From positions 62,001-105,818 of the forward strand of contig JBEKTZ010000013.1 in NCBI GenBank assembly GCA_049515535.1: a stretch of DNA of 43,818 bases. The letters are read 5' to 3'. Source of the stretch: Candidatus Aminicenantales bacterium (GTDB lineage: Bacteria; Acidobacteriota; Aminicenantia; Aminicenantales; UBA4085). The notes under the pieces were generated by a model. The model was not told the origin of the DNA. It saw only the letters and a program-made list of their open reading frames with translations, and ran no database searches. Of this stretch, positions 19,619 to 43,818 are shown piece by piece (the stretch's first letter is position 1; each line of letters opens with the position of its first letter). A program made the position numbers and the translations under genes.

Positions 19619-21541
19619 ATGAAACTCTTCGTTCCGGGACGCATTTGCCTCTTCGGCGAGCATTCGGACTGGGCGGGCGGCTACCGCCGCATGAACGCAG
19701 ACATCGAGAAGGGCTATACGCTGATTTGCGGGACGAACCAAGGCCTTTATGCCGAAGTCGAATCCCATCCCAACGCTCTGGTCCTGAGCTCCGTCACGCC
19801 GGCGGGCGAAAAAATCGGCCCCGCCGAAATCCCCATGGAGCTCAACGCGCTCTATAAAGAAGCGCAGAAAGGCGGGTTCTGGAGCTATATATGCGGTGTG
19901 GCCTATCAGGTGCTGACGAATTATCGCGTCCGCGGCCTCGTCATCGACAACTACAAAACCGACCTGCCGATCAAAAAAGGCCTTTCGTCGAGCGCCGCGG
20001 TCTGCGTCCTGACCGTTCGCGCCTTCAATCGCGTCTATGATCTCAAGTTGACGGTGCGCGGCGAAATGGAATTGGCTTACCAGGGCGAGATCACGACGCC
20101 GTCGCGCTGCGGCCGGATGGACCAGGGCTGCGCCTTCGGCAACCGGCCGGTCCTCATGGTTTTTGACGGCGATCGCCTCGACACGAAGGAACTCCAGGCC
20201 GGCCGGGACATGCCTATCGTCATCGTCGATCTCAAAGCGCGGAAAGATACCGTCGAAATCTTGAACCGCCTCAACCGCTGTTATCCCGTCGCCGAGACCG
20301 AGGCCGAGCGCGGCGTTCACGATCTCCTCGGCCCCATCAACAAAAAGGTCGTCCACCAGGCGATCGAAAGCCTCGAAAAGGCCGACGCCGCGTCTTTCGG
20401 CCGACTCATGATCCAAGCCCAGAAAAATTTCGACCGGTACGCCGCGCCGCTTTGTCCGGAAGAGCTGACGGCCCCGGTCCTTCATCGCGTCCTCGGTTAT
20501 GAGCCGCTCGAGCCCCTCGTCTATGGAGGCAAGGGCGTCGGCTCCCAGGGAGACGGAACGGCGCAGCTCCTGGCCAGGAGCCCCGAGGCGCGGGACGAAA
20601 TCATCCGGATCATCGAGAGCGAGCTTCATTTGCCGTGTTACAGGCTCGACCTGTCGACCGGCCCGAAAGTCAGGAAAGCGGTCATCCCGGCCGCCGGGTT
20701 CGGGACCCGGCTTTTCCCGGCGACGAAAGCCGCCAAAAAAGAGCTGTTTCCAATCGTCGACCGCGACGGCATCGCCAAGCCGGCCATCCTCCTGATCGTC
20801 GAAGAGGCCCTCGCCGCGGGCATCGAAGAGGTCGTCATCATCGTCCAGGAGCACGACCTCAGGGATTTTCAGGCGCTCTTCAATGAGCGGATCACGATCG
20901 AGAACTTCAACAAGCTGTCGCGCCCTTTTCAGGAATACGCGGAGCGCATTCTGGATATGGGGCGGCGGGTGAAGTTCGCCGTCCAAACGACGCAGGAAGG
21001 ATTCGGCCACGCCGTTCATGCGGCCCGGACCGCCGTCGGCGACGAACCGTTCTTGCTGATGCTCGGCGACCACATCTACCGCTCGGATGGACCGCGGTCC
21101 TGCGCCGCTCAATTGCTCGCGGCCTTCCAAAAATACGGCGTCAGCATCCTCGGCGTCCGCCGAACCCCGGAAGAGGCCATCGCGAATTTCGGCACCGTCA
21201 CCGGCGTTTGGACAGAGGAACTCCATCTCCTCAACGTCAACGAATTTGCCGAGAAGCCGACGATCGATTACGCGCGCACGAACCTGCGCGTTCCCGGGCT
21301 GCCCGAGGGAGAATATCTGACGGTCTTCGGCCAGTACGTCATCAAGCCGGAGATTTTCGAAATCCTGGCCGAGAACATCGCCAACAATGTCCGCGAGCGC
21401 GGGGAGTTCCAATTGACGAGCGCCCTCGACCGCCTGCGCCGGACCGACGGGTTCATGGGCCTGGTCATGGACGGGACGCGTTTCGATATCGGCCTGCCGG
21501 ATTCTTACCTGGAAACCCTTCAGGCCTTCAGGAAGACTTGA
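19619..21541 (+). CDS. Fusion of a GHMP sugar kinase (N) and a GalU-like nucleotidyltransferase (C)
   Basis: PGRICLFGEHSD and PIKKGLSSSAA (GHMP motifs), then KAVIPAAGFGTRLFPATK, GFGHAV, LGDH, GEFQLT. Confidence 0.88.
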   Translation: MKLFVPGRICLFGEHSDWAGGYRRMNADIEKGYTLICGTNQGLYAEVESHPNALVLSSVTPAGEKIGPAEIPMELNALYKEAQKGGFWSYICGVAYQVLTNYRVRGLVIDNYKTDLPIKKGLSSSAAVCVLTVRAFNRVYDLKLTVRGEMELAYQGEITTPSRCGRMDQGCAFGNRPVLMVFDGDRLDTKELQAGRDMPIVIVDLKARKDTVEILNRLNRCYPVAETEAERGVHDLLGPINKKVVHQAIESLEKADAASFGRLMIQAQKNFDRYAAPLCPEELTAPVLHRVLGYEPLEPLVYGGKGVGSQGDGTAQLLARSPEARDEIIRIIESELHLPCYRLDLSTGPKVRKAVIPAAGFGTRLFPATKAAKKELFPIVDRDGIAKPAILLIVEEALAAGIEEVVIIVQEHDLRDFQALFNERITIENFNKLSRPFQEYAERILDMGRRVKFAVQTTQEGFGHAVHAARTAVGDEPFLLMLGDHIYRSDGPRSCAAQLLAAFQKYGVSILGVRRTPEEAIANFGTVTGVWTEELHLLNVNEFAEKPTIDYARTNLRVPGLPEGEYLTVFGQYVIKPEIFEILAENIANNVRERGEFQLTSALDRLRRTDGFMGLVMDGTRFDIGLPDSYLETLQAFRKT

Positions 21542-21712
21542 CGAGCGGTTGATATGCCCCGTGGCTTGCCACGGGGAACCGCTCGTAGAGGGATCCAAGG
21601 GGGAGCCGCCCCCTTGGTCGCAGTCCTATGCGGAGCATAGGGCGAGAAGGGGAGGCAGGGCTGCCGGGTCTTCCCGGCGCCCGTTGGAAGGGGTCTTCCC
21701 CTCCAAGTTGAA
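21538..21712 (+). repeat. Family B multi-hairpin element, copy B1 (about 175 bp)
   Basis: TTGACGAGCGGTT...CCAAGGGGGAGCCGCCCCCTTGG...CCAAGTTGAA; five hairpins; recurs at 26370 and 43664. Confidence 0.95.
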
Positions 21713-21720
21713 AGCCGGGC

Positions 21721-22734
21721 CTATTTTTTTTCGTTTTCTCTTTCGAGCGCCTTGATCAATTCCTCGGGCGAACAAACGGCCGTGCCGATCTTGCCGACCA
21801 CGACGCCCGCGGCCGCGTTGGCCATGGCCGCCGCTTCCCGGATCGTCGCTCCCGAGACGAGGGCCAGCGCCGCCGTGGCGATGACGGTGTCGCCCGCGCC
21901 CGTGACGTCGAAGACCTCGCGGGCGAGGGTCGGGATGTGGAGGGGCTTTTTGCCCTTCTCGAAAATGGACATGCCCTGCTCGCCGCGTTTGATGATGAGG
22001 TAGCGGCTCTTCGTCCGGGCCAGAATCTCGCGTCCCGCGCGCTCGATGTCCGTATCCGAATGGCACGGATGCAGGACGATGAGTTCGGCCTCGTGGTGGT
22101 TGGGCGAGATGAAGGTCACGGGCGAGTAGAAGGCGAAATTCTCGACTTTCGGATCGACGAAGACCGGGATTTTCCGCGCCCGGGCGAACGGCAGGACGCG
22201 CTCCATCAGGGTCCGCGTCACGATGCCCTTGTTGTAATCCGAGACGACGATCCCGTCGAAATTCTCCTTCTCGATGAAGCGGACGATCCGGTCCTCGATC
22301 CCAGGGGAGACGGGTTTCTTCTTCTCCTGGTCCACGCGGACGACCTGCTGGTGATGGGCGATGATGCGCATCTTGACCGTCGTCGGCCGCGCGGCGTCGA
22401 CGAAGATCCCGCGGTTTTCTCCGGCGCGCCGCTTGATCCAGGCTCCTTCATCGTCGGCGCCCACGATCCCCACGAGCAGGGGGGACGCGCCCAGGCTTTC
22501 GAGATTCTGGCCGACGTTCCCGGCGCCGCCCAGGCAGGACGTGCTCTTGCGGACTTCGACGACGGGGACGGGGGCCTCCGGCGATATGCGCGAAACGTCG
22601 CCCCAGATATATCGGTCGAGCATGAGATCGCCGAGGACGATCATTCGCCGGCCCTTGAATTTACGGATCAGGCGCCGCGTTTTTTGCGTATCCATTGAGA
22701 GCGTGGCCATCGGCTTTCCTTTTGATAAGTTCAT
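21721..22734 (-). CDS. rfaE1: D-glycero-beta-D-manno-heptose-7-phosphate kinase (RfaE domain I / HldA)
   Basis: GDLMLDRY, RISPEAPVPVV, GGAGNV, SDYNKG, VFDVTGAGDT. Confidence 0.92.
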   Translation of the reverse strand: MNLSKGKPMATLSMDTQKTRRLIRKFKGRRMIVLGDLMLDRYIWGDVSRISPEAPVPVVEVRKSTSCLGGAGNVGQNLESLGASPLLVGIVGADDEGAWIKRRAGENRGIFVDAARPTTVKMRIIAHHQQVVRVDQEKKKPVSPGIEDRIVRFIEKENFDGIVVSDYNKGIVTRTLMERVLPFARARKIPVFVDPKVENFAFYSPVTFISPNHHEAELIVLHPCHSDTDIERAGREILARTKSRYLIIKRGEQGMSIFEKGKKPLHIPTLAREVFDVTGAGDTVIATAALALVSGATIREAAAMANAAAGVVVGKIGTAVCSPEELIKALERENEKK

Positions 22735-22735
22735 G

Positions 22736-23830
22736 TCAGTGATAAACGGGGTTGGAGATGATCCACGGCACGCCGGGATCGAGGGGCGTCCGTTCGCGGA
22801 GATACACTTCGGCGCGATAGGCGCCGGGCCCGGCGAGCGGCAGCGTCACGTCGTTTTCGCGGGTCCGATGGATAACCTTACCGTCATGAATGATAACCGT
22901 TTCGTGAGCGAAAGAAAAGGGCGCGGTGAGGCGGAGGGAAGCGCCTTCGAGGCCGAACCGGAAGCCGCGCGCGTCGGCGGCGGCGTCCACCGCGCTGTAG
23001 AACCCGCCGCGGCGCAGCGCGTCAAAGAGCTGCCGGCGGGCGGCGTCGAAGTCGGACGAACGGGGCTGATCGAGCAGGACATGCAGGTGAAAAACCTGGA
23101 ATATGGCGCTGTAAAAAAAATGGGCGTCGGTGCTGTAAAAGCCCAGGGCCTGATGGCGGGCGAGAAGCTGATCCCACTTGCGCAGCGCTTTTTCCGGCGG
23201 GACGATCATCTTCATCAGGGCGAACGCCGGCTTGACGGCTAACGCGGGATAATAAGGCAGCGAGTGGAGAATATGGCTCTTGACCATGCTGTCCGCGTCG
23301 AGGATCTCCAACCCCGCGTATTCAAAAATCTGCCCCCAGGACCAGCTTGTTTTTGCATAGGGATGGGCGATGACGGTGAAGCCGCCCAGCGCGGCGACTT
23401 CGCGGGCCGCGGCTTCCGCGTCCGAGGAAATCCTCACCGAGTCGGCGGGCCGGTCGAACCCGAGGGCGACGAGATGTCCGCGGTTGGACGAAATCTCGGA
23501 GCCCGCCAGCACGAGAACTCCGCTCTTCCAGCCCTGGGCGTCGAGGGAACGGAAGTTCGGCTTGCCGTGGTCGGTGAAAATGATGAAGTCCAGGCCGGCG
23601 TCGGCGGCGACCCGGGCGATTTGATCGACGGTCTTCCGGCCGTCCGAGAAGCGCGAATGCATGTGGTAGGCGCCCACATATTCAAAGAGGGAGGGTTTGG
23701 ACGCCTCCGCCAGGGCGGGCAGGGGGGCCGATTGGTAGCGCTTGTAGGCGACGATCTGCCAGCCCATCCAGATCATATAGACGAGCAGCGCAGCCAGGAT
23801 GACGCGGCCGATCGTTTTTCTAATCTTCAT
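22736..23830 (-). CDS. Membrane-anchored PHP-domain metallohydrolase
   Basis: N-terminal TM; HMHSRFSDG, FTDH, IAHP, STDAH metal-binding motifs. Confidence 0.8.
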   Translation of the reverse strand: MKIRKTIGRVILAALLVYMIWMGWQIVAYKRYQSAPLPALAEASKPSLFEYVGAYHMHSRFSDGRKTVDQIARVAADAGLDFIIFTDHGKPNFRSLDAQGWKSGVLVLAGSEISSNRGHLVALGFDRPADSVRISSDAEAAAREVAALGGFTVIAHPYAKTSWSWGQIFEYAGLEILDADSMVKSHILHSLPYYPALAVKPAFALMKMIVPPEKALRKWDQLLARHQALGFYSTDAHFFYSAIFQVFHLHVLLDQPRSSDFDAARRQLFDALRRGGFYSAVDAAADARGFRFGLEGASLRLTAPFSFAHETVIIHDGKVIHRTRENDVTLPLAGPGAYRAEVYLRERTPLDPGVPWIISNPVYH

Positions 23831-25001
23831 TTTTTATTCTCGCCAGGGCGAACGGCATAGTGACGATGAACAGCAGGAGCGTCAAGACTTCCGAATCGCC
23901 GAAGTTGTATTCGAAAAACCCGGCCACGAAGAACGCCGCCAGTGCCGCCAGGGCGCCGGCCGCCGGCGCTCGATAGTCGGCGTCTTTTTCTTTGACCAGT
24001 TTAATCAAGGCGATGAAGGCCATCGCGATAAACGCCAGCCAAGCCAGGAGCGCGGGGATTCCCCGTTCGGCCGCGATCTGAAGGAGATTATTGTGGAGAT
24101 GGACGTTTTTCTTGGCCAGCTCGTCGAGGCCGTACTTGGACTCTTGAAAGACCATGTCCACGGTTTTGGGCCCCGTTCCATGCAGAGGATAGTCCTTGAT
24201 GATCTTGATCCCGGCCCGGAAATATTCGACACGGGCCATGTTGGAGAATTCCGTGCTGCTGAAGATACTCAGCGCGCGGTCTTTGATCGGCCGCGGACTG
24301 GCGAAAAAGACAAGCCCGCCGATGACGGGGACGAGGACGAGCGCTTTGGGCTTCCAGAGGAAAAGGATGACGCACAGCGCCACCGCCAGGCCGATCCATG
24401 CGCTTCGGGTCATGGTCAGGACGAGGGCCACTCCGGAAAGGACGAGAGCGAGGCCCCACAAAATCCTCGTCTTGTCCCGCCGGAAGAAGATCATGCCCAG
24501 GGCGAACGAGCCGAAGAGAACAAGCAGTCCGGCCTGGGTCATGTAGTGGCCCATGAAACCCTTCACCCGCTCGCCGGGATAGGCTTTGAGGAAATAATAG
24601 CCGATGGCGTAAGCGGAGTTGATGAATCCCGAGCCGAGGAGCGCGGCGGACAGGAAGGACATCTCTTTTTTGCGCTTGAGGGCGGTATAAACGATGGGCA
24701 CGAGGAGAAAGAGAACGAGCTTCCGATCGTCCTTGAAGCTGATTCCGGGATTGACCGAGAGCGCGCACGAGAGGAGCGACAGGGCCGCGTAGACGAGGAG
24801 CAGCCAGAAAAAATCGGGGAAAGCGAAGCGGATTTTTTTTTGGCCGAGAAGGACGACCCAGCCGATCAATCCGAGGGCCAAAAAGATCTGGACGACAGAG
24901 ATCGAGATCTGCGAAAAGAGGAGGCCGAGGGCGAGCGAGAGGAGGAGAAGGACTTCCGCCAGGCTTTGGCCGTCGGTGAACGCGCTCAATGAAGATTTCA
25001 T
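23820..25001 (-). CDS. O-antigen ligase (WaaL/Wzy_C) family membrane protein
   Basis: Many TM segments, LTMTRSAWIG, HGTGP, HLHNNLLQIAAERG. Confidence 0.88.
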   Translation of the reverse strand: MKSSLSAFTDGQSLAEVLLLLSLALGLLFSQISISVVQIFLALGLIGWVVLLGQKKIRFAFPDFFWLLLVYAALSLLSCALSVNPGISFKDDRKLVLFLLVPIVYTALKRKKEMSFLSAALLGSGFINSAYAIGYYFLKAYPGERVKGFMGHYMTQAGLLVLFGSFALGMIFFRRDKTRILWGLALVLSGVALVLTMTRSAWIGLAVALCVILFLWKPKALVLVPVIGGLVFFASPRPIKDRALSIFSSTEFSNMARVEYFRAGIKIIKDYPLHGTGPKTVDMVFQESKYGLDELAKKNVHLHNNLLQIAAERGIPALLAWLAFIAMAFIALIKLVKEKDADYRAPAAGALAALAAFFVAGFFEYNFGDSEVLTLLLFIVTMPFALARIKNED

Positions 25002-25014
25002 CCGGGGTATTATA

Positions 25015-26046
25015 TCACAACAAAAACGGCCGGCAGGCCGCAAAAACTTCCTCCGGCGTGATGCCGAGCAGGCAGCGGAAGTCGCCGGTGAGGCATTCCC
25101 GCTGCCGGCACGGCCGGCAGGCGAGGTCTTTTTGGAGCAGGACGGTCCGGCCGCCGTCCTTGCGCCACGGGGCGAAATGAGCGGGCAGCGTCGGGCCGAA
25201 ATATGCCACGATCGGCGTCGGCGTGGAAGCGGCGATGTGCATCGGGCCGCTGTCCGGCCCGACGAAGAGCGCGGCGCGGCCGATCATGACCCTGGTTTCC
25301 GCGAGGTTCAGCCGGCCGGCGAAAGGGACGGCGGCCGCCTTGGCCGTTTTGAGAATTTCGGTTTCGGCCGTTTTATCGCCGTCCGCGCCGATGAGAGCGA
25401 CCCTGACGCCCGTGATGCGCGCCAGAAGATCGATTAGCTTCGCGATATTTCCGGGACCCCAGTCCCGGAACCGGTTGCCGGCGCCGATGTGAAGCGCGAT
25501 GAGCTTCGCCGCCCCGGCGCCGACCTCGCGCAGGAGGCGGCTCACGCGCTCGATTTCCTCAGGTCTCGGCTCCGGGATGAAGAGAGGCGGGATGTCGGCG
25601 TCGTCAAATTTTGCGCCCAGCGCGCGCACGAGATTGGCGTGGTTTATCACGCTGTGGATCGGGCTGTTTTCGCCCCGGCGGGAGATCCGGATATCGTAAA
25701 GGAAACTCTTGTTTTTGACGGCGTAGCCGATTTTGAGCTTCGCTCCGCTCCAGAACGTGATCCAGGACGCCCGGGGCCCGCCGTGAAAATCCAGGATGAC
25801 GTCGTATTTTTCCTTCCGGATTTCGCGGATGAGCCGGACGACGTCCTTGATTTTTTGCTTGGCGGGGATGGCGATGGTCCTCTCGATGCCGGGATTCCCG
25901 TCCACGAGCCGGCGGAAGGGCTCTTCTACGAGATAATGCAGGGAGGCGCCCGGAAAGTGTTTTTTCAGAAGGGCCACGGCGGGCGTCGTCATGACGACGT
26001 CGCCGATGCGCCGGAGGCGGATAAGCAGGATTTTTGCGGGGGTCAA
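25015..26046 (-). CDS. Glycosyltransferase family 9 (heptosyltransferase-like)
   Basis: KILLIRLRRIGDVVMTTP, GPDSGPMHIA, FGPT, CRPC. Start placed at TTG 26046, uncertain by a few codons. Confidence 0.9.
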   Translation of the reverse strand: MTPAKILLIRLRRIGDVVMTTPAVALLKKHFPGASLHYLVEEPFRRLVDGNPGIERTIAIPAKQKIKDVVRLIREIRKEKYDVILDFHGGPRASWITFWSGAKLKIGYAVKNKSFLYDIRISRRGENSPIHSVINHANLVRALGAKFDDADIPPLFIPEPRPEEIERVSRLLREVGAGAAKLIALHIGAGNRFRDWGPGNIAKLIDLLARITGVRVALIGADGDKTAETEILKTAKAAAVPFAGRLNLAETRVMIGRAALFVGPDSGPMHIAASTPTPIVAYFGPTLPAHFAPWRKDGGRTVLLQKDLACRPCRQRECLTGDFRCLLGITPEEVFAACRPFLL

Positions 26047-26054
26047 ACCTGTCG

Positions 26055-26243
26055 TCAGTTCTTGACCGGACGATCGGGCTCGATCGTGGCCTCTTCGATC
26101 AGCATGACGGGGATCTCGTCTTTGATCGCGTAGACGCGGTGGCATTTCACGCATTTCAGGCCTTTCCCGTCCGCGGTGAGCTTGACGTCCGTCTTGCATT
26201 GGGGACAGGCCAGGATTTCGAGAAGCAGGGGATCAAGCGCCAT
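26055..26243 (-). CDS. Trm112/YcaR family protein
   Basis: LLEILACPQCK...CVKC...YAIKDEIPVML; GGAGG RBS. Confidence 0.9.
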   Translation of the reverse strand: MALDPLLLEILACPQCKTDVKLTADGKGLKCVKCHRVYAIKDEIPVMLIEEATIEPDRPVKN

Positions 26244-26369
26244 GTCGGCTCTCCTCCGTCCTATTTCCCTTTTTCCGAAGGGGAAGCATAAGGACGTGAC
26301 TTCGTTTCTCGTGTAGAATATATCACATCCTCCCTCCCGTCAACCCTGGCCGGCGGTTCCCCGGCCGCC

Positions 26370-26553
26370 TTGACGAGCGGCGAATATGCCCCGCAGCTTG
26401 CCGCGGGGAACCACTCGTAGAGGGATCCAAGGGGGAGCCGCCCCCTTGGTCGCAGTCCTATGCGGAGCATAGGGCGAGAAGGGGGGCAGGGCGACCGGGT
26501 CTTCCCGGTGCCCGTTGGAGGGGGAACGCGAAGCGGTCCCCCCCAAAGTTGAC
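26370..26553 (+). repeat. Family B multi-hairpin element, copy B2 (about 184 bp)
   Basis: TTGACGAGCGG...AAAGTTGAC; same core as B1 with a longer last hairpin; lies between divergent genes. Confidence 0.95.
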
Positions 26554-26608
26554 TTCGCCGTTCGTCCCGTGGTAGAACGGGCTTAATTTCAGGATACGAC
26601 AGGTTTCC

Positions 26609-27706
26609 ATGCTCATCACGTTTTTCGGCGCCTACGATCCGGCTTATCCACGGAATGCCGTCATCCGCAAGGGACTGCGATTGAACGGCGTGGACGTGCG
26701 GGAATGCCGCGTGGCGCAGAAATTCAAGTTCTGGGCGCGTTACCCTCTCCTTCTTTGCCGCTGGCGTCGCCTGCCGGATTTTCTTTTCGTCCCAGAGTTC
26801 TGCCAGAAAGACGTGCCGCTCGCCGCGTTCATGGGCTTGCTGACGGCGAGACCCGTGATCTTCGATCCGCTCGCCGCGCGCTACGAGACCAAGATCGTCG
26901 ATTGGAAATGGAAGCCGGCGGACTCGCCCGCGGCGTGGTGGAATAGCCGGATCGACAGGGCGGCGTTTGCCGCGGCCGGGCTCGTCCTGGCCGACACAGA
27001 GGCGCACAAATCCTACTATTGCGAGACGTACGGCTTGAGGCGAGACAAGGTCGAGGTCCTGCCGCTCGGATACGACGACGGGCTTTTCAAACCGAGGGAC
27101 TGGCGCGCGGACGCGGCGGCCGGAAGATCCGGCGGCTCGTTCGAGGTCTTGTTTTACGGGTCGTTCCTGCCGCTCCACGGCGCGGACGCGATCATCGGGG
27201 CGGCCCGAATCCTGGCCGCCAAGGATCCGTCCGTTCGTTTCAAGCTCGTCGGTTCGGGCCGGACGTTGGCCGACGTCCGCGGGGCCGCGGCGGCCGCGGC
27301 GTTGAACAACGTCGAGTTCATCGGATGGATGCCGGCCCGGGAGCTTCCGAAAATCATCGGGGCCGCGGACGTTTGCCTGGGCATTTTCGGGCGCACGGAA
27401 AAGGCCGGGCGCGTCGTCCCGCACAAGATCTTTCAATCCATGGGCATGGGCAAGCCCATCATCACGGCCCGGACGCCGGCCGTCGAGGAATTTTTCGAGC
27501 ACGGGAAAAATATCTATTTCTGCGATGACCCCCTCGCGGAGTCTCTGGCCGAGGCCGTTCTTGCCCTCAAACAGGACGCGACCTTTCGGAACGGCATCGC
27601 CCGGCGCGGGCATGAGTTGGTCACGGAGAACTATTCTCCAAGGGCCATCGGCCGCCGCCTGCTCGAAATATCCGCGAAGCATTTTGGATCGGGACGACGA
27701 CCATGA
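26609..27706 (+). CDS. Glycosyltransferase family 4
   Basis: FYGSFLPLHG, ADVCLGIFG, VVPHKIFQSMGMGKPIIT (GT-B fold). Confidence 0.88.
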   Translation: MLITFFGAYDPAYPRNAVIRKGLRLNGVDVRECRVAQKFKFWARYPLLLCRWRRLPDFLFVPEFCQKDVPLAAFMGLLTARPVIFDPLAARYETKIVDWKWKPADSPAAWWNSRIDRAAFAAAGLVLADTEAHKSYYCETYGLRRDKVEVLPLGYDDGLFKPRDWRADAAAGRSGGSFEVLFYGSFLPLHGADAIIGAARILAAKDPSVRFKLVGSGRTLADVRGAAAAAALNNVEFIGWMPARELPKIIGAADVCLGIFGRTEKAGRVVPHKIFQSMGMGKPIITARTPAVEEFFEHGKNIYFCDDPLAESLAEAVLALKQDATFRNGIARRGHELVTENYSPRAIGRRLLEISAKHFGSGRRP

Positions 27707-28551: not shown

Positions 28552-28594
28552 ATTTCCAAGGAGAAGCGCTCGGAATCCCCGGCGGGACTCGTGC

Positions 28595-28701
28595 TCGACG
28601 GCGGCCGGGGCCCCGGGCTTTACCCGGGGGTCCACTTCCGCCGTACTCGCCCGTGGATATAAGCCACGGGCGAGTGGCGAGCCGAAGGCTCGTCCCTTGA
28701 C
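28595..28701 (+). repeat. Family A palindromic element, copy A2 (107 bp)
   Basis: Near-identical to 16731-16837. Confidence 0.95.
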
Positions 28702-34175: not shown

Positions 34176-34186
34176 AAACCCTTACT

Positions 34187-35255
34187 GGGGTCGCGTCTAC
34201 ACTTTGCACTTTTTCTATTCCCTTTTGAGAAGTTTCAACCCCATCCCCGTCTCATCCAAAGGAAGCCATTTATCTAAAGAGAGCTCATTAATGGCTAGAC
34301 AGCTTCGTATCGAGTATCCGGGGGCCTTCTATCATGTCGTATCGAGAGGTAATCAAAAACAACCTATCGTGAAAGACGACAGCGATAAAGCTGCTTTTAT
34401 AAATTATCTTTCAAGGGCTAACGAAAAATTCAGAGCGATTTTTCATGCTTTCTGCCTGATGGAAAATCATTATCACCTATTTATCGAAACGCCCCACGGG
34501 AATTTATCAATGATCATGCATTTCATTAACACGTCCTATACTATTTATTTCAATAAAAAGCATGATCGAGTCGGACACCTTTTTCAAGGCCGTTTTAAAG
34601 CTATCTTAATAGAAACAGACTCCTATGCCCAAGAATTGTCACGATATATGCATCTGAATCCCGTACGAGCCGAAATCGTCGCCTTACCGGAAGAATATCC
34701 TTGGTCGAGCTACAGAGAATACGCTGGCCAAAGAGGGGCCACGCCGTGGCTGAATACAGCTTTAGTGCTCGGATATTTCGGGGATACCATCGAGAAAGCC
34801 AAGAAGCGCTATAAGGAGTATGTCCATGATGCCATTGACAAAAGGATCGAGAGCCCTCTAAAGAAAGCAGGGCCGTCTTTAATTTTAGGGAGCGAAGATT
34901 TCCTCGCCAGGATAAAAAAGGAGTTCCTTCTTCATAAAACCGAGAACCGCGAAGTCCCGGCGATTCGATCGTTGAAAGAAAAACCCGCTCTTGAATTGAT
35001 ACTTCGCATAGTCGAAAGGGAATTGGGGGGAAAAAATCGTTTTACAAGAAACATGGCTATTTTTCTGTGTCGAGGAAAAACCGATTATCCCTTGAGGGAA
35101 ATCGCGGCATTCTACAGAATTAGTCCTTCGGCCATTGTGAAAATTAGCCGACAAATGAAAGAAAGGCTAGCCTGTAATAAGGCTCTAGAAAATGCCCTCG
35201 AAGTGATCGAGAAATCTCTTTTCGGCTGAAAAGTGCAAAGTGTAGACGCGACCCC
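34187..35255 (+). mobile_element. Y1 (RAYT-type) transposase element bounded by perfect 27-bp terminal inverted repeats
   Basis: GGGGTCGCGTCTACACTTTGCACTTTT at 34187-34213 and its exact reverse complement at 35229-35255. The interior is visibly more AT-rich than the flanks. No target-site duplication seen. Confidence 0.88.
34291..35229 (+). CDS. REP-associated tyrosine transposase (RAYT/TnpA-REP-like, HUH Y1) with a C-terminal HTH
   Basis: MARQLR..YPGAFYHVVSRGN, CLMENHYHL (HUH), GHLFQGRF, YMHLNPVRA, YPWSSY; C-terminal RNMAIFL...LREIA helix-turn-helix. Confidence 0.92.
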   Translation: MARQLRIEYPGAFYHVVSRGNQKQPIVKDDSDKAAFINYLSRANEKFRAIFHAFCLMENHYHLFIETPHGNLSMIMHFINTSYTIYFNKKHDRVGHLFQGRFKAILIETDSYAQELSRYMHLNPVRAEIVALPEEYPWSSYREYAGQRGATPWLNTALVLGYFGDTIEKAKKRYKEYVHDAIDKRIESPLKKAGPSLILGSEDFLARIKKEFLLHKTENREVPAIRSLKEKPALELILRIVERELGGKNRFTRNMAIFLCRGKTDYPLREIAAFYRISPSAIVKISRQMKERLACNKALENALEVIEKSLFG

Positions 35256-35405
35256 GTTTTCGTTAAAAGAAAGGCCGCTCTTTCGTCGTTTTTTCCCCTG
35301 TGTTGAAAATTAATCTTCCCGGCGGACGTCTATTCTTTATTCGCGGCTTTGCGGTCAATCCTCGGCGGGATTTCCCCGGGGCCTGAGCGTGGGGCAAAGG
35401 AAAAG

Positions 35406-36506
35406 ATGAACGAGCGGAAGATCCCCTGGCTGGCCTTGAACCTCGCCCTCGGCGACAATCTCAAGCTCCTGCGGAAGGTTCTCGAACGCTTTTCCTCGCC
35501 GGATGAAGCCTTCCGTTCGCCGCGCCCCGGGCTTTATGCCCTCGGTCTCGACGAAAACCGCGTGGAGCGCTTCCTGTCGCTGAAGCTCGTCGAGCAAGCC
35601 CACAAAGAATTTGACAGACTGAAAAAGAAAGGCTATTCTCTTGTAACCTTTGAGGACAGCGAATATCCGGCTTACCTCAGAGAAGTCTTCGATTCTCCCT
35701 GCGTCCTGTATTGTGCGGGGCGTGCGGAGGCGTTGCAGGGCCCGGCCGTCGCTATCGTCGGCACACGGAAGCCCTCCCCCTACGGAAGGGCCGTCGCCGA
35801 GAGACTGGCCGAAGACCTTGCCTCCCGAGGGGTAGTGATCGTGAGCGGGCTGGCCGTGGGCATCGATGCGATCGCCCACTGGGGAGCTTTAAAAGGAGGT
35901 CGAACGGTCGCCGTGTTAGGCTCAGGATTGGAAAATTTATATCCGAAAGCGAACCGCAAGCTCGCGGACAGGATCGCGGGAAACGGAGCGGTCGTCACCG
36001 AATTTCCGCTCGACTCGGAGCCGTTCGCTCAGAATTTTCCCCGGCGCAACAGGATCATCAGCGGCCTGGCCCGGGCGGTCGTGGTCGTCGAGGCCGCCGA
36101 GAAAAGCGGCGCACTCATCACGGCCCACTTCGCCCTCGACCAGAACCGGGAGATCATGGCCGTTCCGGGCAACATCACCTCGGAACTCAGCCGGGGGGCC
36201 AACGGCCTGATCAAAAAGGGCGCCAAGCTCATCGAGGGCTGGGAGGACATCGCCGAAGAGCTGTCGTCTCCGCTCCGCGAGACGCTTTTGTCCCAAAGGG
36301 AAGGCGAAACTCGCCCCCTTCCGTTGATGACCGACGAAGAGGCGGCCGTCTATAAATTATTAAAGGTCGATGAGCTCGCCCACATCGACGATCTCATGGA
36401 CCAGAGCGGGCTGTCGATTTCCGAGCTGCTCGCCCTTCTGCTGAACCTCGAGATCAAGGGCTTGATCACGCAGAGCCCGGGCAAGTATTTCCAGAGGAGA
36501 ATGTGA
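35406..36506 (+). CDS. dprA: DNA-processing protein DprA
   Basis: VAIVGTRKPSPYG, IVSGLAVGID, NFPRRNRIISGL, VEAAEKSGALITA. Confidence 0.96.
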   Translation: MNERKIPWLALNLALGDNLKLLRKVLERFSSPDEAFRSPRPGLYALGLDENRVERFLSLKLVEQAHKEFDRLKKKGYSLVTFEDSEYPAYLREVFDSPCVLYCAGRAEALQGPAVAIVGTRKPSPYGRAVAERLAEDLASRGVVIVSGLAVGIDAIAHWGALKGGRTVAVLGSGLENLYPKANRKLADRIAGNGAVVTEFPLDSEPFAQNFPRRNRIISGLARAVVVVEAAEKSGALITAHFALDQNREIMAVPGNITSELSRGANGLIKKGAKLIEGWEDIAEELSSPLRETLLSQREGETRPLPLMTDEEAAVYKLLKVDELAHIDDLMDQSGLSISELLALLLNLEIKGLITQSPGKYFQRRM

Positions 36507-38837: not shown

Positions 38838-38857
38838 TTCGGCGAGATCATCCGCTT

Positions 38858-38925
38858 TCAACAGCGGCTGGGGCCCCGGGCTTTGCCCGGGGGTCCACTT
38901 CCGCCGCGAAGGCTCGTCCCTTGGC
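38858..38925 (+). repeat. Family A element, short form A4 (68 bp, lacks the 39-bp central module)
   Basis: TCAACAGCGG...CCCCGGGCTTTGCCCGGGGGTCCACTTCCGCCG|CGAAGGCTCGTCCCTTGGC. Confidence 0.9.
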
Positions 38926-38989
38926 CCCTTTGAGAAAAGGGGAGAATCCTGTTGTGCCCCCTCTCTCTAAACGCTAGAATGAAATCGTC

Positions 38990-39883
38990 ATGAGAAAAGA
39001 GTTGGACGAATTCATGGCTTACCTCCGGCACGAAAGGAACGCCTCGCCGCACACGATCTCGAGTTACAGGATCGACCTCGTCCAGCTCGCGAACTATCTC
39101 GAGGCGAAGAAGATCAAGCTCGGCCGCGTGGACAATGTCGTTCTGCGCGGTTTCCTGGTCGACCTCTATAAAAAAAGCCTGTCCAAGACCTCCGTGGCCC
39201 GGAAGCTCGCGGCCGTCCGGTCTTTTTTCGAGTTCGGCATCAGGCAAAAATGGGTCGACGACAATCCGGCCAGGATCGTGTCCACGCCCCGCCTCGATCG
39301 CCATGTGCCGGTTTTCCTGTCGGAAGAGGAAATGAAAAAGCTGATCGAGGTCCCGCCGACGGACGATGTCATCGGCCTCCGGGATAGGGCGATTCTCGAG
39401 TTATTCTACGCCACGGGCATCCGGGTCGGCGAGCTGGTCGGGATCGAACTCGACGACATGAGCCTGGACGAGAAAATGATCCGCGTGCGGGGCAAGGGAA
39501 AGAAAGAGAGGCTGGTGCCCTTCGGCCGGAAAGCCGCGGAAAGCCTGCAGACGTATCTCCGGGCCCGCCCCTCGCTCCCTTTGGTTTTGGGACAGAAGGC
39601 GCTTTTCCTGAATTATCGGGGCTCGCGGCTCACCTCGCGTTCCATCGAAAGACTCGTGACGAAATATTTCAGCCGGATCGCGCTGCGGAAAAAGATCAGT
39701 CCCCACGCGTTGCGCCATTCGTTCGCGACGCATCTTCTCGGCCGCGGAGCCGATCTGCGCGTGATCCAGGAGCTCCTGGGCCACGAGAGCCTGGCCACGA
39801 CCCAGAAATACACCCACATGGACGTCAAGCAGCTCCTCGACGTTTATCGCAAAGCCCACCCCCGCGCGGGAAGCGCGAAATAA
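38990..39883 (+). CDS. xerC: Tyrosine recombinase XerC
   Basis: RDRAILELFYATGIR, GKGKKER, HALRHSFATH, LLGHESLATTQKYTH; dprA-topA-xerC synteny. Confidence 0.9.
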   Translation: MRKELDEFMAYLRHERNASPHTISSYRIDLVQLANYLEAKKIKLGRVDNVVLRGFLVDLYKKSLSKTSVARKLAAVRSFFEFGIRQKWVDDNPARIVSTPRLDRHVPVFLSEEEMKKLIEVPPTDDVIGLRDRAILELFYATGIRVGELVGIELDDMSLDEKMIRVRGKGKKERLVPFGRKAAESLQTYLRARPSLPLVLGQKALFLNYRGSRLTSRSIERLVTKYFSRIALRKKISPHALRHSFATHLLGRGADLRVIQELLGHESLATTQKYTHMDVKQLLDVYRKAHPRAGSAK

Positions 39884-39912
39884 TCGGCCCAAAAACTTTT
39901 TTTTAACTCACG

Positions 39913-40025
39913 TTGACCCGTTCGCCTCTGCTAAGCCCCGCCTTTCAAGGCGGGGACGAGAAGCGAGACTCAGGGTTAACCCCGAACAAGGCCCGGCATC
40001 CATGCCGGGGAGTCGAGGGGTTTAC
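39913..40025 (+). mobile_element. Family C element: miniature non-autonomous IS200/IS605-like element (PATE-like)
   Basis: TTGAC, then AAG-CCCCGCCTT-TC-AAGGCGGGG (39936-39955), central GGGTTAACCC, AAGG-CCCGGCAT-CC-ATGCCGGG (39992-40009), ending TTTAC. This matches the two-subterminal-hairpin layout of IS200/IS605 ends. Single copy in the window. Confidence 0.6.
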
Positions 40026-40130
40026 TTTTTTTTGCGCCGTCGAGGCCAAGATGTCAACACGGGTTGACTTGGCCGCGCCCAATTATTTAATAACCATATG
40101 ATAACAAAATAGATGCAGGCGCGTAATTCT

Positions 40131-40146
40131 TGGCATAGGGTTTGCA
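40131..40146 (+). promoter_or_regulatory. Sigma54 (-24/-12) promoter
   Basis: TGGCATAGGGTTTGCA with exact GG-N10-GC spacing, 26 nt before the ATG; AT-rich IHF-like tract upstream. Confidence 0.8.
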
Positions 40147-40172
40147 ATAGGATGGGGCGAAAGGAGGTCATC

Positions 40173-40466
40173 ATGAAACAATTCATCACGAAAGGAGTGG
40201 CGGTCAGCCTCATCCTCGGCCTTTTTGTTTTTCCTCTCCTTGCCCAGCAGGCTCAGACCAAGAAGCCCACGGGCGACAAGGTCAACCTCAACACCGCGAC
40301 GCTCGACGAGCTCCAGAAGCTGCCCAGGGTCGGCCCGAAGGTCGCCCAGCGGATCGTCGATTACCGGAAGCAGAACGGGAGCTTCAAAAAGATCGAAGAG
40401 ATCATGAAGGTTCGCGGCATCGGGGAAAAGACGTTCGCCCGGATGAAAGACATGCTGACGGTCTAG
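40173..40466 (+). CDS. comEA: ComEA-like helix-hairpin-helix DNA-binding protein
   Basis: Signal peptide; KVNLNTATLDELQKLPRVGP...KVRGIGEKT; AAGGAGG RBS. Confidence 0.88.
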   Translation: MKQFITKGVAVSLILGLFVFPLLAQQAQTKKPTGDKVNLNTATLDELQKLPRVGPKVAQRIVDYRKQNGSFKKIEEIMKVRGIGEKTFARMKDMLTV

Positions 40467-40545
40467 GCGCTGGTCCCAAAAGCCTTCCAAGGGTGTCCCC
40501 TCCGCCCTTAGCCATCCCTCTTCCTCCGGAAGGGGGGTGGCCCCT

Positions 40546-41157
40546 CTATTTATCAAGGAATTCGAGGAGAAAGGCTTTTATCTTTTTAAGGGCGCGACCA
40601 CGATGGCTGACGGCGTTCTTCTCCCGCGGCTTGAGCCGTCCAAACGTCTTTCGCAACGGCCGATAATAGAAAATGGGATCATAGCCAAAGCCGCGTTGCC
40701 CTTCATTCTCGAAAGTGATCGTGCCCCGCACTTGCCCGGTCACGGCCTTGAGCGGCTTGCCGTCGAGCGAAAGGACCATCGAGCAGATGAATCGGCCGCG
40801 ACGTTTTTCCGCGGGGATGTCTTTCATCATCCCGAGGGCCTTTCGGATGTTCTTCGCGTCCGTGGCTCCTCTGCCGGAAAATCGCGCCGAGATGACGCCG
40901 GGCGCGCCTCCCAGCGCTTCGATCTCCAACCCGGAATCTTCGGCCAGAGTCAGAAACCCGGTTTTCAGGCTGTAGAACCGGCTTTTCCCCAGAGCGTTTT
41001 CTTTAAACGTCGTCCCCGTTTCCATAAACCGCGCGTCTATCCGGGCCCCGGCAAGCGTGATGACCCTGACCGGCAAGCCGAGCAGAGCGGTCCGGATTTC
41101 ACGAGCCTTACCTTCGTTCGTCGTGGCCAGAACGAGAGTGATTTTTTTTGGGCCCAC
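40546..41157 (-). CDS. rdgB: RdgB/HAM1 non-canonical purine NTP pyrophosphatase
   Basis: LATTNEGK, AEDSGL...GAPGVISARF, GFGYDPIF, KNAVSHRGRAL. Confidence 0.95.
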   Translation of the reverse strand: MGPKKITLVLATTNEGKAREIRTALLGLPVRVITLAGARIDARFMETGTTFKENALGKSRFYSLKTGFLTLAEDSGLEIEALGGAPGVISARFSGRGATDAKNIRKALGMMKDIPAEKRRGRFICSMVLSLDGKPLKAVTGQVRGTITFENEGQRGFGYDPIFYYRPLRKTFGRLKPREKNAVSHRGRALKKIKAFLLEFLDK

Positions 41158-41164
41158 GGAGATT

Positions 41165-42073
41165 CTATCGTCCGATCGTGTCCGTGAAAAAGGCCAGGAC
41201 GAAGAGAAGAATCAGGAAGAGGGCGTAGAGCGCGAACTTGGGGCTGGCCAGAAGCTTTTCCGGCTCTTCCATGACCTCGGCTTCCTTTAACGTTTTCCGG
41301 AAAATCAGAAAGAAGAAAAAAAGAAGAAAAGGCGCGATGGCATAGAACGTCTGCAATTTGAGGGAATAGCCGAGATACAGAAAGGCGAGAAGACAGATGG
41401 CGGCGCTGACGGCCATGCCGAACAAGAGGTGATTCCCGGTATATTTCTTGTGCGATGTCCGGTACTGACTCGCCTTTTCCTTGAGGAGACGAAACTCGGA
41501 AAGCCTCTTGGCCACCATGAGGAAATTCCCGAACGACCACCAGCTGAGGAGAAGGCTCAAGGACGGAAAATCGCGGAGCGGCGCGAAGGCGTACCAGCCG
41601 ATGAGAAAGCGGATGGGGTTGTTGGCGGATTCCGAGATCGCATCGAGGAAGGGAATGTCTTTCGTCCGGATGGGCTTGACGTTATAGACAATCCCCGCGA
41701 TAAACAGCGCGAAGAGCGAAAAAAAGAACCTTTTGGAAAAGAGAGCGTACGCAGATCCCAGGCCGATCAACGTAATGATCGAGCCGAGGAGAAAAAATGG
41801 GCGCTTCTGGATCTCGCCCTGGACAAGAGGCCGGGTCCGCTTGGTCGGGTGGTGAATGTCGAACGGCATGTCCACGATTTCGTTCAGAATGTAGTTTGCG
41901 GTCGAGATCGCCCAGGTCAAAAGAAAAGCGGCCGCCGTGCGCCAGACGAGCTCGATCAAGGAAAGACGAGAGAGAGCTTCCCGGTTGAGAAAGAAAAAGG
42001 CGGCCGTCCCGAGAAAAATGGCCAAACTCCGGGGCCATCGTTCCAGGCGCATGGCTCGCAAGTAGGCATTCAC
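41165..42073 (-). CDS. UbiA-family transferase (polyprenyl-phosphate phosphoribosyltransferase-like)
   Basis: GTG start overlapping the upstream stop; NYILNEIVDMPFDIHHPTKRTRPLVQG, KRLSE; multiple TM helices. Confidence 0.8.
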   Translation of the reverse strand: MNAYLRAMRLERWPRSLAIFLGTAAFFFLNREALSRLSLIELVWRTAAAFLLTWAISTANYILNEIVDMPFDIHHPTKRTRPLVQGEIQKRPFFLLGSIITLIGLGSAYALFSKRFFFSLFALFIAGIVYNVKPIRTKDIPFLDAISESANNPIRFLIGWYAFAPLRDFPSLSLLLSWWSFGNFLMVAKRLSEFRLLKEKASQYRTSHKKYTGNHLLFGMAVSAAICLLAFLYLGYSLKLQTFYAIAPFLLFFFFLIFRKTLKEAEVMEEPEKLLASPKFALYALFLILLFVLAFFTDTIGR

Positions 42074-42981
42074 GGGCGCGCGTCCTTTTTCGCGTAAATC
42101 TCGAACGAATCCCGGAGCGCTAATTTTATCGGAATCCGTTTTAAAAAAGAAGTTGAGCGCCCTTTTTTGGCCAAGACATCGAAGATTTTTTTTCGGGAAA
42201 GGAGATAATGGGCGCTGAACGTCCAGGCGTATCTTTTTCTTTTGACGATCTCGAAACCGGCGTCCTCGAGGAGCATAATCAGGCTTTTCTCCGAGAAATA
42301 CGCCAGATGGCCCGGCCGCAGGTGCCACCAGCGTTTTCCCGCGATGCGGGCCGCCGGGCTATGGACGTCGGGAGTGACGAGACACAGGATTCCGCCGGGG
42401 GCGAGGATTTCATGGGCTTTTCGAACGGCTTCCCGAGGCTTCGGCGTGTGCTCGATGAAATCGACCATGGTCACGGCCCGAAAAGATCCGGGAGCGAGAG
42501 AAGTCTCTTCGAAGAATCCCTGAACCAGGCTGATTCCGCGCTTTTCGGCCGCGAACGTCACGGCCCACGCGCTCGCTTCGATGCCGGAGGGCGTCCAGCC
42601 CCTGGCCCGGGCGAGCTGGAGAAGAATCCCCGTCGCCGCGCCCACATCGAAAAGAGGGCCTTTGTCCGGCAGCCGTTTTTCGAGCTCTTTGAGGATCCCC
42701 AGAAAGTTTTTTGACCGGCCTTCGGCTTCCTGATCATACGCGGGATCTTCGACCCGGCTGTAAAGCGAGAAGATGAATTCCGGCTTGGGATATGGATCGG
42801 CGAAAATATGCCCGCAGTCCAAACATTCTTTCAGGTCCCAGATTTTTCCGTATTCGCTGTCGGTGATCTTGATCTGTTCCGTGTCGAGCAGGGCATAATC
42901 GAACGTGCCCTGCTTGTAGAAGCGGAAGCGCCGGCTCGAGCAGATGGGGCATTTTTCCGCGCGGGCGAATTTTTCCGGCAT
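42070..42981 (-). CDS. Class I SAM-dependent methyltransferase with an N-terminal Cys (zinc) motif
   Basis: CPIC...CLDC, FDVGAATG, DFIEH, LAPGG, PGHLAYF. Confidence 0.88.
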   Translation of the reverse strand: MPEKFARAEKCPICSSRRFRFYKQGTFDYALLDTEQIKITDSEYGKIWDLKECLDCGHIFADPYPKPEFIFSLYSRVEDPAYDQEAEGRSKNFLGILKELEKRLPDKGPLFDVGAATGILLQLARARGWTPSGIEASAWAVTFAAEKRGISLVQGFFEETSLAPGSFRAVTMVDFIEHTPKPREAVRKAHEILAPGGILCLVTPDVHSPAARIAGKRWWHLRPGHLAYFSEKSLIMLLEDAGFEIVKRKRYAWTFSAHYLLSRKKIFDVLAKKGRSTSFLKRIPIKLALRDSFEIYAKKDARP

Positions 42982-43132
42982 GGGCTTATATCATAGCGGG
43001 GAAGAGAAGGGGATACAAGACCAAAATTCGATCGTTCGGCCGCGCGAAAAGAAGGCGGATTTCGGATAAAAATACCGCTTGAAATATCATTGCCTCGTCT
43101 TGGAAACTGTACTAAGGTCAGCAAAAAACCGC

Positions 43133-43192
43133 TTGACATATCATTGTCGGGAATGATAATTAATAAAGTCTATTGACATTATCGACTATTAT
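43133..43192 (+). promoter_or_regulatory. Sigma70-type promoter and putative Rrf2 operator
   Basis: TTGACA (43133-43138)-16 nt-GATAAT (43155-43160), then imperfect palindrome AATAAAGTC-N13-GACTATTAT (43162-43192). Confidence 0.65.
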
Positions 43193-43204
43193 GGAAAACG
43201 GCCA

Positions 43205-43645
43205 ATGAGGCTTTCGACCAAAGGCGAATATGCGAGCCGGGCCATGTTGGAGCTTGCCCTTCATTATGCCGAAGGACCCCGCCATATCCGCGACATATCA
43301 TCCGCCCAGGATATCCCCGAACGGTTTCTCGAACAGATCCTGCTTTTGCTCAAGAGGACAGGGTATTTGCGGAGTAAGAAAGGTCCGAACGGCGGCTATT
43401 TTCTGGCCAAGCCTCCAACCAGGATCTCCGTGGCCGAAATCATCCGAGTCATGGACGGTCCCTTGGCGCCGATCGATTGCGTCAGCGTGACCGCCCGGGA
43501 ATTTTGCTCCCGGGAGCGGTTTTGCGGATTGAAGGGGCTTTGGAAAGAAGTCCGGGACGCGATCGCTCAAATCCTGGAACGGACGACCTTCGAAGACCTC
43601 GCCGAGCGGACAAGAGAAGCCAAACGGACCGCGAGCGGGACATAA
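43205..43645 (+). CDS. Rrf2 family transcriptional regulator (IscR/CymR-like, three Cys)
   Basis: MRLSTKGEYA, FLEQIL, SKKGPNGGYFLA, C-x8-C-x5-C (DCVSVTAREFCSRERFC). Confidence 0.93.
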   Translation: MRLSTKGEYASRAMLELALHYAEGPRHIRDISSAQDIPERFLEQILLLLKRTGYLRSKKGPNGGYFLAKPPTRISVAEIIRVMDGPLAPIDCVSVTAREFCSRERFCGLKGLWKEVRDAIAQILERTTFEDLAERTREAKRTASGT

Positions 43646-43663
43646 AAATTTTTTCGAGAATAG

Positions 43664-43818
43664 TCGACGAGCGGTTGATAAGTCCTATGGCTCGCCATAG
43701 GGAACCGCTCGTAGAGGGATCCAAGGGGGAGCCGCCCCCTTGGTCGCAGGGCGGGGTTTCATGCCCCGCCCGAGAAAGGGAGGCAGGGCGACCGGGTCTT
43801 CCCGGTGCCCGTTGGAAG
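43664..43818 (+). repeat. Family B multi-hairpin element, copy B3 (cut by the window end)
   Basis: TCGACGAGCGGTT...same CCAAGGGGGAGCCGCCCCCTTGG core; variant hairpins 1b and 3. Confidence 0.93.

Follow-up and report, generated by a model that had tools for sequence, protein, structure and literature searches.

Family B, a five-hairpin intergenic repeat of an Aminicenantales genome, is probably a mobile DNA element of the IS200/IS605 kind

A stretch of 43,818 nt from the genome of a Candidatus Aminicenantales bacterium (assembly GCA_049515535.1, contig JBEKTZ010000013.1, positions 62,001 to 105,818; hereafter the window) carries three copies of a repeat, here called Family B, that folds into five hairpins, and it thereby raises the question whether such a repeat is an RNA gene or a piece of mobile DNA. 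Family B is probably a non-autonomous, gene-less mobile DNA element of the single-strand, 'peel-and-paste' kind known from the IS200/IS605 insertion sequences (IS), comparable to palindrome-associated transposable elements (PATEs) or miniature inverted-repeat transposable elements (MITEs). A mobile DNA element rather than an RNA gene is indicated by the combination of (i) empty sites in relatives, (ii) the lack of a target duplication, (iii) a hairpin shared with a resident IS, and (iv) the exchange of modules between copies. The initial annotation of the window had proposed a functional non-coding RNA (ncRNA) or single-stranded DNA (ssDNA) element; of these the second option, a substrate of a Y1 transposase, is favoured by the shared IS200 end hairpin and by the empty sites without duplication. 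Its statement that the element belongs to no known family holds for the element as a whole, which is undescribed and has no match in Rfam, but not for the left end, which is of the IS200/IS605 type. Literature searches, which did not cover ISfinder, returned no paper on Family B.

The three copies are located where they were first reported, namely B1 at 21538-21712, B2 at 26370-26553 and B3 at 43664-43818, all on the + strand and all intergenic according to the open reading frame (ORF) list of the window. Window and contig (C13) stop at the same position, and B3 is truncated there within the 5' arm of hairpin P5. Each unit starts with a flanking pentamer, which is TTGAC in B1 and B2 and TCGAC in B3, and the unit end is TTGAC, or TTGAA in B1. 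The individual parts are the following:

21538-21542, + strand: flanking target pentamer TTGAC of B1 (transposon-adjacent motif), within which the upstream gene 19619-21541 has its TGA stop codon (21539-21541)
21543-21712, + strand: element body of B1, between convergent genes, with the 3' end TTGAA instead of TTGAC
21541-21586, + strand: outer stem P1 of B1, ACGAGCGGTT/AACCGCTCGT, enclosing a GATATG bulge and hairpin P1b
21557-21576, + strand: P1b of B1, a 20-nt hairpin preceded by ATG, of the same type and with the same ATG as the hairpin at either end of the resident IS200-type element
21595-21617, + strand: hairpin P2 of B1, CCAAGGGGG/CCCCCTTGG, 98.9% paired in the 60-copy alignment described below
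21624-21642, + strand: hairpin P3 of B1, allele X (CCTATGC/GCATAGG), where B3 has allele Y
21658-21682, + strand: hairpin P4 of B1, short allele, where other copies have at least three unrelated inner stems
21684-21706, + strand: hairpin P5 of B1, short allele, followed by G and the terminal pentamer (21708-21712)
26370-26374, + strand: flanking target pentamer TTGAC of B2, from the sequence and the empty allele
26375-26553, + strand: element body of B2 with P3 allele X, short P4 and long P5; the terminal TTGAC (26549-26553) is separated by 55 bp from the start of gene 26609-27706
43664-43668, + strand: flanking pentamer TCGAC of B3, from the sequence
43669-43818, + strand: element body of B3 with the P1b variant TCCTATGGC, P3 allele Y and short P4, cut in P5 by the contig end

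In these copies P1, P2, P3 and P4 as well as the linkers AGAGGGAT and TCGCAG are as initially described, and the same applies to the exchange of the P3 stem, for which B1 has allele X and B3 the unrelated allele Y at the same position. The P2 sequence occurs six times in the window (three hairpins), compared with 0.59 occurrences expected by chance. The paired double substitutions reported for P1b were found in part: B2 has one compensated pair (T-A to C-G) but also one uncompensated A.C mismatch, and B3 has two compensated pairs but also one G.T wobble. The reported difference in the P5 loop is real between B1 and B2, but it consists of an extended inner stem and hence of more than the loop; P5 is comparable only between these two copies because B3 is cut inside the 5' arm.

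The borders of Family B were analyzed in 60 full-length copies, a cleaner set that was relied on since a first scan for 3' ends had included three false positives inside genes. The pentamer on the 5' side ends in AC in 59 of the 60 copies (TTGAC in 34 and another xxxAC in 25; one copy has another pentamer), and the forms other than TTGAC include ATGAC, TCGAC, TTTAC, TTCAC, and TTAAC. On the 3' side the pentamer is TTGAC in 46 copies, TTGAA in 5, TTGAT in 5, and TTGGC in 4. The element ends (GAGCGG... and ...CCAAGTTGAC) are not inverse complements, so that terminal inverted repeats are absent, and the body is made up of hairpins and has no coding capacity.

Six Family B sites were compared with the corresponding sites of relatives. 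At the B2 site, contigs of the metagenome runs X4 and X2, which stem from different studies, join position 26346 or 26348 straight to position 26549, i.e., the first T of the 3' TTGAC of B2, and the empty allele thus has a single TTGAC followed by the same downstream sequence. At site L169 of the closed genome G013, the orthologue in genome G007 has TTTAC directly followed by TAATC, whereas G013 has TTTAC, the element (ending in TTGAC), and then TAATC. At site L164, GTAAC is followed by TTTGCGG in G007, and TTAAC, the element, and TTTGCGG succeed each other in G013. The element is absent from site L173 in genome G017, where junction and flanks have diverged, and at site L162 the same genome has kept no more than about 25 nt of the element, the 3' end among them. 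The comparison at site L160 was uninformative because the flank is occupied by another abundant repeat (L160:1256-1462 in G013, about 200 nt), which is unrelated to Family B and has dozens of copies in G007 and G017. Scans of metagenomes with gapped patterns for the empty alleles of B2 and of B1 gave no matches for either. Where the 5' pentamer differs from TTGAC it is this pentamer that the empty site holds; the target is therefore not duplicated, and the 3' TTGAC is part of the element. Family B is inserted 3' of a fixed short motif without target-site duplication. A MITE with terminal inverted repeats, moved by a DDE transposase, was considered and rejected, as the ends are not inverted and the 5' and 3' pentamers differ from each other at L169 and L164.

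The window's genome (G000) has two Y1_Tnp genes, one of which lies in a 607-bp IS200-type element on contig C9 (G000:C9:107900-108490; L149/L186), the only cognate IS in this genome. Its left end consists of TTGAC, 15 nt, ATG, and a 20-nt hairpin, and its right end of ATG, the same hairpin, TCA, and TTGAC. The same layout was found in seven IS copies from five genomes, with TTGAC, TTTAC or TGCAC as the preceding pentamer and TTGAC or TTTAC at the end; IS copies in relatives have an intact tnpA, the unbroken product of which is 150 aa long. Family B shares the left-end arrangement, since ATG and a 20-nt hairpin are located 11 nt from the pentamer in Family B and 15 nt in the IS. The 24 nt formed by ATG and P1b are identical between an IS end and copy L028 (alignment score of 48, with a maximum of 27 among shuffled sequences), and P1b of B1 differs from the IS hairpin by one compensated pair. 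A search of the genome with the IS hairpin gave 23 matches, of which 20 are in Family B, two at the IS ends, and one in a solo palindrome. The latter is a perfect palindrome of 36 nt (G000:C13:38160-38195) in which the transposase hairpin stands between GTCAATGA and TCATTGAC, and it may be a minimal relic of a right end. A fragment of tnpA (46 aa) was also observed at C1:205271-205408.

The junctions of both the IS and Family B match the insertion rule of the IS200/IS605 family (PMC5027513): insertion always places the left end 3' of a tetra- or pentanucleotide that is specific to the element, the elements excise precisely, and the lagging-strand template serves as the active strand. They also fit the terminology of adjacent and encoded motifs and the gene-less, PATE-like derivatives described in PMC10055086. 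The end rule of Family B is shared by an unrelated repeat, Family A, and this was counted in favor of a mobile element.

Family A is represented in the window at 28594-28701 and by 126 BLAST pieces in the genome, 54 of which reach the 3' end; 43 of these 54 end in TTGAC. It is preceded by TCGAC or TCCAC, metagenome contigs cover it up to about 90 times as deeply as its flanks, and its window copy has an extra inner hairpin with a P1b-like stem.

Genome-wide, searches with the three copies as queries yielded 45 BLAST clusters, or about 42 interspersed loci once merged, in the 3.45-Mb genome (32 contigs), and Family B measures about 170-210 bp, with a body of 165-210 nt. Full length is reached by 19 of the loci, and the others are missing some modules and have their junctions at short repeats (TTG or CCAA, for example). 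The ends of several contigs of this genome fall within Family B copies. Run X4 has a contig with a shorter version at the B1 site, composed of P1, a variant P2, and P5. Every hairpin position has alternatives: P1 occurs with a 6-nt bulge, without it, or with the bulge paired on both sides, P3 as two unrelated stems, P4 with at least four unrelated inner stems across genomes, and P5 in a short or an extended form. For four modules with two states each, the 19 full copies show 10 combinations, and every pair from P3, P4, and P5 is present in all four combinations. Copies therefore exchange modules, i.e., the modules of Family B recombine among copies. A variant family (G000:C3:68948-69056, C5:56157-56210, C8:163181-163301) has P2-P5 in common with Family B and a different 5' part, and there P5 is succeeded by a Family-B-like start (GTGACGAGC...), which looks like a permuted order of parts.

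The taxonomic distribution of Family B is patchy. It was found in 24 of 41 genomes of the same order, including none of the seven of genus g6 and all three of genus g8, and in none of 150 genomes sampled from the rest of the phylum (five candidates scored per genome). A 15-mer scan of genome contigs gave 118 stretches that were mostly chance matches in unrelated phyla, and only the Aminicenantes records among them are relevant. The 17 full copies of G013 have a median pairwise identity of 93%.

For the analysis of the fold, the 60 full-length copies from seven genomes (19 from the window's genome, 17 from G013, and 24 from five others) were aligned with MAFFT; 66 rows had been found, and six were dropped as nested or over-long. 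In the five-hairpin structure 94.5% of 3076 cells are paired and 24 of 58 pairs are changed on both sides, with P1 (helix 1) at 95.5% paired and 11 such pairs. None of 500 shuffles reached any of five measures. Related sequences can outscore shuffles without any structure, a caveat that is answered in part by controls in which the partners were slid by 1-3 columns and which had 45-55% paired cells and 5-14 pairs changed on both sides. The MAFFT alignment places P3 allele X, as well as the long alleles of P4 and P5, out of register; their cells were counted as unpaired, and this reduced the score instead of inflating it. A structure predicted by RNAalifold from the same copies replaced P2, P4, and P5 with long-range pairings of G-runs with C-runs; it was set aside, and the five local hairpins were counted instead. 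The five-hairpin structure is maintained, and the initial proposal that compensatory changes and replacement of whole stems preserve it is borne out by the covariation counts and by the module catalogue.

The same data were used to ask which strand the fold serves. Compared with shuffled sequences, B1 folds with a z-score of -5.25 on the + strand and of -7.84 on the - strand. Wobble cells of the G.T type, tolerated on the + strand, number 43 and those of the A.C type, tolerated on the - strand, number 31 (p = 0.20; cells are not independent events). They lean to the + strand in P1 (31 G.T versus 10 A.C) and the opposite way in P2-P5 (12 versus 21). The loop of P1b reads CAA instead of TTG in about 8 of the 60 copies, a flip that is expected of a DNA palindrome.

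The -35 promoter box begins with TTGAC, and the form xTGAC is also encountered at TGA stop codons. The gene context of Family B was determined with a crude, purpose-made ORF caller rather than from a curated annotation, and by its calls the gene 3' of the element is co-oriented with it in 38 copies and opposed in 16, with no call in 6 (p = 0.004). A -10 box with at least 4 of 6 matches at a spacer of 16-18 bp was found in 18 of the 38 co-oriented cases and in 1 of the 16 opposed ones (10.5% of background windows), and TAnnnT at that spacing in 12 of 38, eight of them at exactly 17 bp, versus 1 of 16 (3.8% of background windows). A decayed 3' pentamer, other than TTGAC, is present in 6 of 38 co-oriented but 7 of 16 opposed cases (Fisher p = 0.04). 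Of the copies with a called upstream gene, 30 of 57 sit downstream of a divergently oriented gene, with the end of the copy at the -35 position of the next promoter, and in 6 of 27 tandem cases, including B1, the stop codon of the upstream gene lies within the 5' pentamer. At site L169 the promoter reads TTTACT-17-TAAAAT in the empty and TTGACT-17-TAAAAT in the filled state. IS-borne -35 boxes that form hybrid promoters are known (PMC9330008). In G013, with dnaA at 3.72 Mb, 21 of 27 copies have the top strand on the leading-strand sequence (p = 0.006), which would fit the IS200/IS605 family, albeit under the assumption of an origin at dnaA and a terminus opposite to it and confounded with gene orientation.

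Beside B2, at 26315-26343 on the - strand and 27 nt upstream of the B2 target pentamer, there is a promoter-like site (TTGACG-17-TATTCT) for the divergent gene 25015-26199, which was also found by the promoter scan.

A putative mechanism can be outlined for such an element. A Y1 (HUH) TnpA supplied in trans would bind P1b on the top strand, cut after the flanking pentamer and after the terminal TTGAC, and paste the single strand after another pentamer of this kind. With TTGAC at -35 boxes and xTGAC at stop codons, harmless insertions would accumulate at promoters and just past genes, and at a promoter the element's own TTGAC would rebuild the -35 box while the distance to the -10 box stayed the same. 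The surviving copies would thus be those at -35 boxes rebuilt by the element end or just past stop codons. The stems may be kept because they must fold as ssDNA or may be renewed as palindromes, and one could guess that P2-P5 stabilize the single-stranded form or insulate the promoter. We also put forward, tentatively and as the less probable part of this account, that Family B is a promoter-homing element. Target and terminal motif are both TTGAC, and it would therefore enter between the -35 and -10 boxes without silencing the promoter and would sometimes upgrade a weak -35 box (TTTACT to TTGACT). The interchangeable P2-P5 body, with its right end lacking the known transposase hairpin, would then be recognized or used in a manner so far undescribed for IS200/IS605 elements, namely by a second enzyme or as a built-in barrier protecting the rebuilt promoter against transcription that arrives from upstream.

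Several results weigh against the proposed origin from an IS200/IS605-type element or against its link with promoters. The right end of Family B (P5, G, TTGAC) has no similarity to the right-end hairpin of the IS, and in local alignments the likeness is limited to the 24 nt of ATG and P1b; with P5 being unlike that hairpin, the standard two-hairpin reaction of TnpA is not explained. Two mini-copies made up of half of P4 and P5 (G000:C9:159598-159653 and C1:163017-163058) each stand right after TTGAC without P1, and this lack of P1b suggests that the right part can move or survive alone; one of them is located between the end of a Family A copy and a downstream tRNA gene, with TTGACT-17-TAAAAT. 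The sole cognate tnpA of the window's genome is interrupted by an in-frame TAA. A close TnpA (>80% identity) was found in only 7 of the 41 genomes (G000, G012, G014, G019, G026, G039, G040), and among the copy-rich genomes G000, G004, G007, G010, G013, and G017 only in G000, although the incompleteness of metagenome-assembled genomes applies to these with the exception of the closed G013. The latter has only two Y1 genes, of about 45% identity and with other hairpins. The wobble counts are not significant overall (43 versus 31), with P1 alone leaning to the top strand. The replichore bias is not seen in the window's genome (26 of 42 copies, p = 0.16), where it was assessed from the GC skew of the flanks, a measure that does not predict gene strand in this genome (51 of 102 bins). 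In the window itself no strict promoter was found at the 3' end of any copy, with B1 lying between convergent genes and B3 being cut, and B2 is followed only by TAGAAC at a spacer of 18, which the promoter scan did not call.

How do other explanations fare with the same evidence? The five hairpins could be the fold of a structured ncRNA family, either a multi-copy RNA gene or a cis-regulatory RNA, as is suggested by the strong covariation and high pairing, by the stable fold of B1 (z = -5.25), and by the conserved single-stranded linkers. The opposite strand, however, folds at least as well (z = -7.84), the wobbles of P2-P5 have no strand bias, and several copies have flipped loops. Rfam gave no match in the window at the gathering score and none on the element in four loci even at E-values of up to 1. 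About 42 copies with internal deletions and with 10 module combinations among 19 full copies, patchy occurrence across genera, and presence or absence at orthologous sites between strains are likewise not what an RNA gene would lead one to expect. The unit ends exactly at the -35 position, so that the adjacent promoter does not transcribe it, and a divergent gene precedes 30 of the 57 copies for which an upstream gene was called. The ncRNA reading of the initial annotation is hence very improbable. Still harder to credit is a stand-alone guide-RNA scaffold of the omega-RNA type, carried by a PATE and serving a TnpB or IscB nuclease encoded elsewhere. P2-P5 do make up about 120 nt of structured sequence reaching to the right boundary, and PATEs often encode such RNAs at their right end (PMC10055086). 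Yet the TnpB zinc-ribbon domain PF07282 was found neither in the window's genome nor in any of the 41 genomes of the order, whereas control genomes matched (IscB/IsrB families were not searched), and with PF07282 in 0 of 41 genomes a guide RNA for TnpB was rejected for now.

Other rivals accept a mobile or spreading unit and differ in the agent. The window encodes a Y1_Tnp protein of 312 aa (34291-35229; Pfam E-value 1.9e-12) that scores 74 bits, under the cut-off of 80, with the NCBIfam model of the REP-associated tyrosine transposase (RAYT; REP, repetitive extragenic palindrome), and a RAYT of this type might spread Family B as a REPIN, i.e., a cluster like the bacterial interspersed mosaic elements (BIMEs), which are modular and hairpin-rich as well (PMC3333891). 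The gene is located in an island of low GC (34186-35256) with perfect 27-bp inverted repeats on its flanks; a 23-mer from these flanks makes up another five inverted doublets, spaced 60-80 bp, at other places in the genome, which amounts to a REPIN-like family that has a transposase of its own. These repeats are unrelated to Family B, of which no module stands beside the gene and whose copies are single oriented units instead of inverted doublets. Homologs of the RAYT-like protein occur in 34 of the 41 genomes, including all seven of genus g6 that lack Family B, and P1b together with the TTGAC end rule fits the IS200-type element instead. We therefore regard spread by this protein as quite unlikely. 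A host-maintained intergenic cassette, in which an insulator or terminator upstream of a promoter is joined to a -35 box, kept for regulation, and spread by recombination rather than transposition, would account for the orientation bias toward the downstream gene, the -10 box at 17 bp, and the better preservation of TTGAC before co-oriented genes, as well as for the G017 remnant that retains just the 3' end and for the one site pair with TTGACT in the filled and TTTACT in the empty state. It is nevertheless an unlikely origin. The empty alleles already have the pentamer and the -10 box, and the promoter is thus older than the element; 16 of 54 copies face an opposed gene and some (B1, L164) lie between convergent genes. 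No U-tract follows the hairpins of Family B, no terminator was called at B1, and sharp junctions bounded by pentamers and a hairpin shared with an IS are not expected of recombination alone. A cassette is compatible with a secondary domestication of a mobile element, and secondary use by the host is possible.

With Family B taken as a mobile element, an apparent new structured RNA becomes a case of a selfish element living inside promoters. An element that lands on a -35 pentamer with a replacement copy at hand would escape the cost that insertions normally entail, and it may adjust the strength of promoters throughout the genome of an uncultured lineage. Caution is also advised for the discovery of RNA motifs, since ssDNA transposon ends and palindromic repeats yield compensatory changes and stem replacement as readily as RNAs do. 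The combination of a canonical left end with a non-canonical right end, and the lack of a matching transposase in copy-rich genomes, poses a biochemical question on what IS200/IS605 transposition needs at the right end. On the practical side, Family B copies break assemblies, with contigs that begin or end in them.

Intergenic repeats that are modular or form hairpins and that can affect the expression of neighboring genes include the pneumococcal BOX and the Neisseria Correia elements, the latter with inverted repeats and a TA duplication. Both differ from Family B in sequence, ends, and host group. REP/BIME repeats and REPINs with their RAYT resemble Family B as intergenic GC-rich hairpins that occur in modular clusters and are related to substrates of Y1 transposases (PMC3333891). 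Unlike these, Family B does not form inverted doublets and does not flank the RAYT-like gene of the genome, a gene accompanied by another repeat family. Family B has identical left and right cleavage motifs (TTGAC), unlike IS608, in which they are TTAC and TCAA; the motif of ISDra2 is TTGAT. Insertion 3' of a specific tetra- or pentanucleotide, precise junctions, and subterminal hairpins are common to IS608, ISDra2, and Family B (PMC5027513 and PMC3201880), and the orientation tied to replication in these IS (PMC5027513) is suggested for Family B only in G013. Unlike both IS, Family B has no transposase gene. It is similar to IS with outward -35 boxes in that the -35 box comes from the inserted element and the -10 box from the target DNA; unlike in the hybrid promoters described in PMC9330008, Family B is inserted at a -35-like pentamer that is already there and takes its place with unchanged spacing, and no new promoter is made for a silent gene. 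PATEs, as presented in PMC10055086, are like Family B short, non-coding, and multi-copy, have neither inverted terminal repeats nor a target duplication, follow a fixed short motif, and have the same left-end hairpin as an autonomous IS of the same genome. Family B differs from them in that its cognate transposase is missing from most of the copy-rich genomes searched, its right end is without the IS hairpin, it has four extra hairpins with interchangeable alleles, and its adjacent motif is at the same time its own terminal motif and the start of a -35 box.

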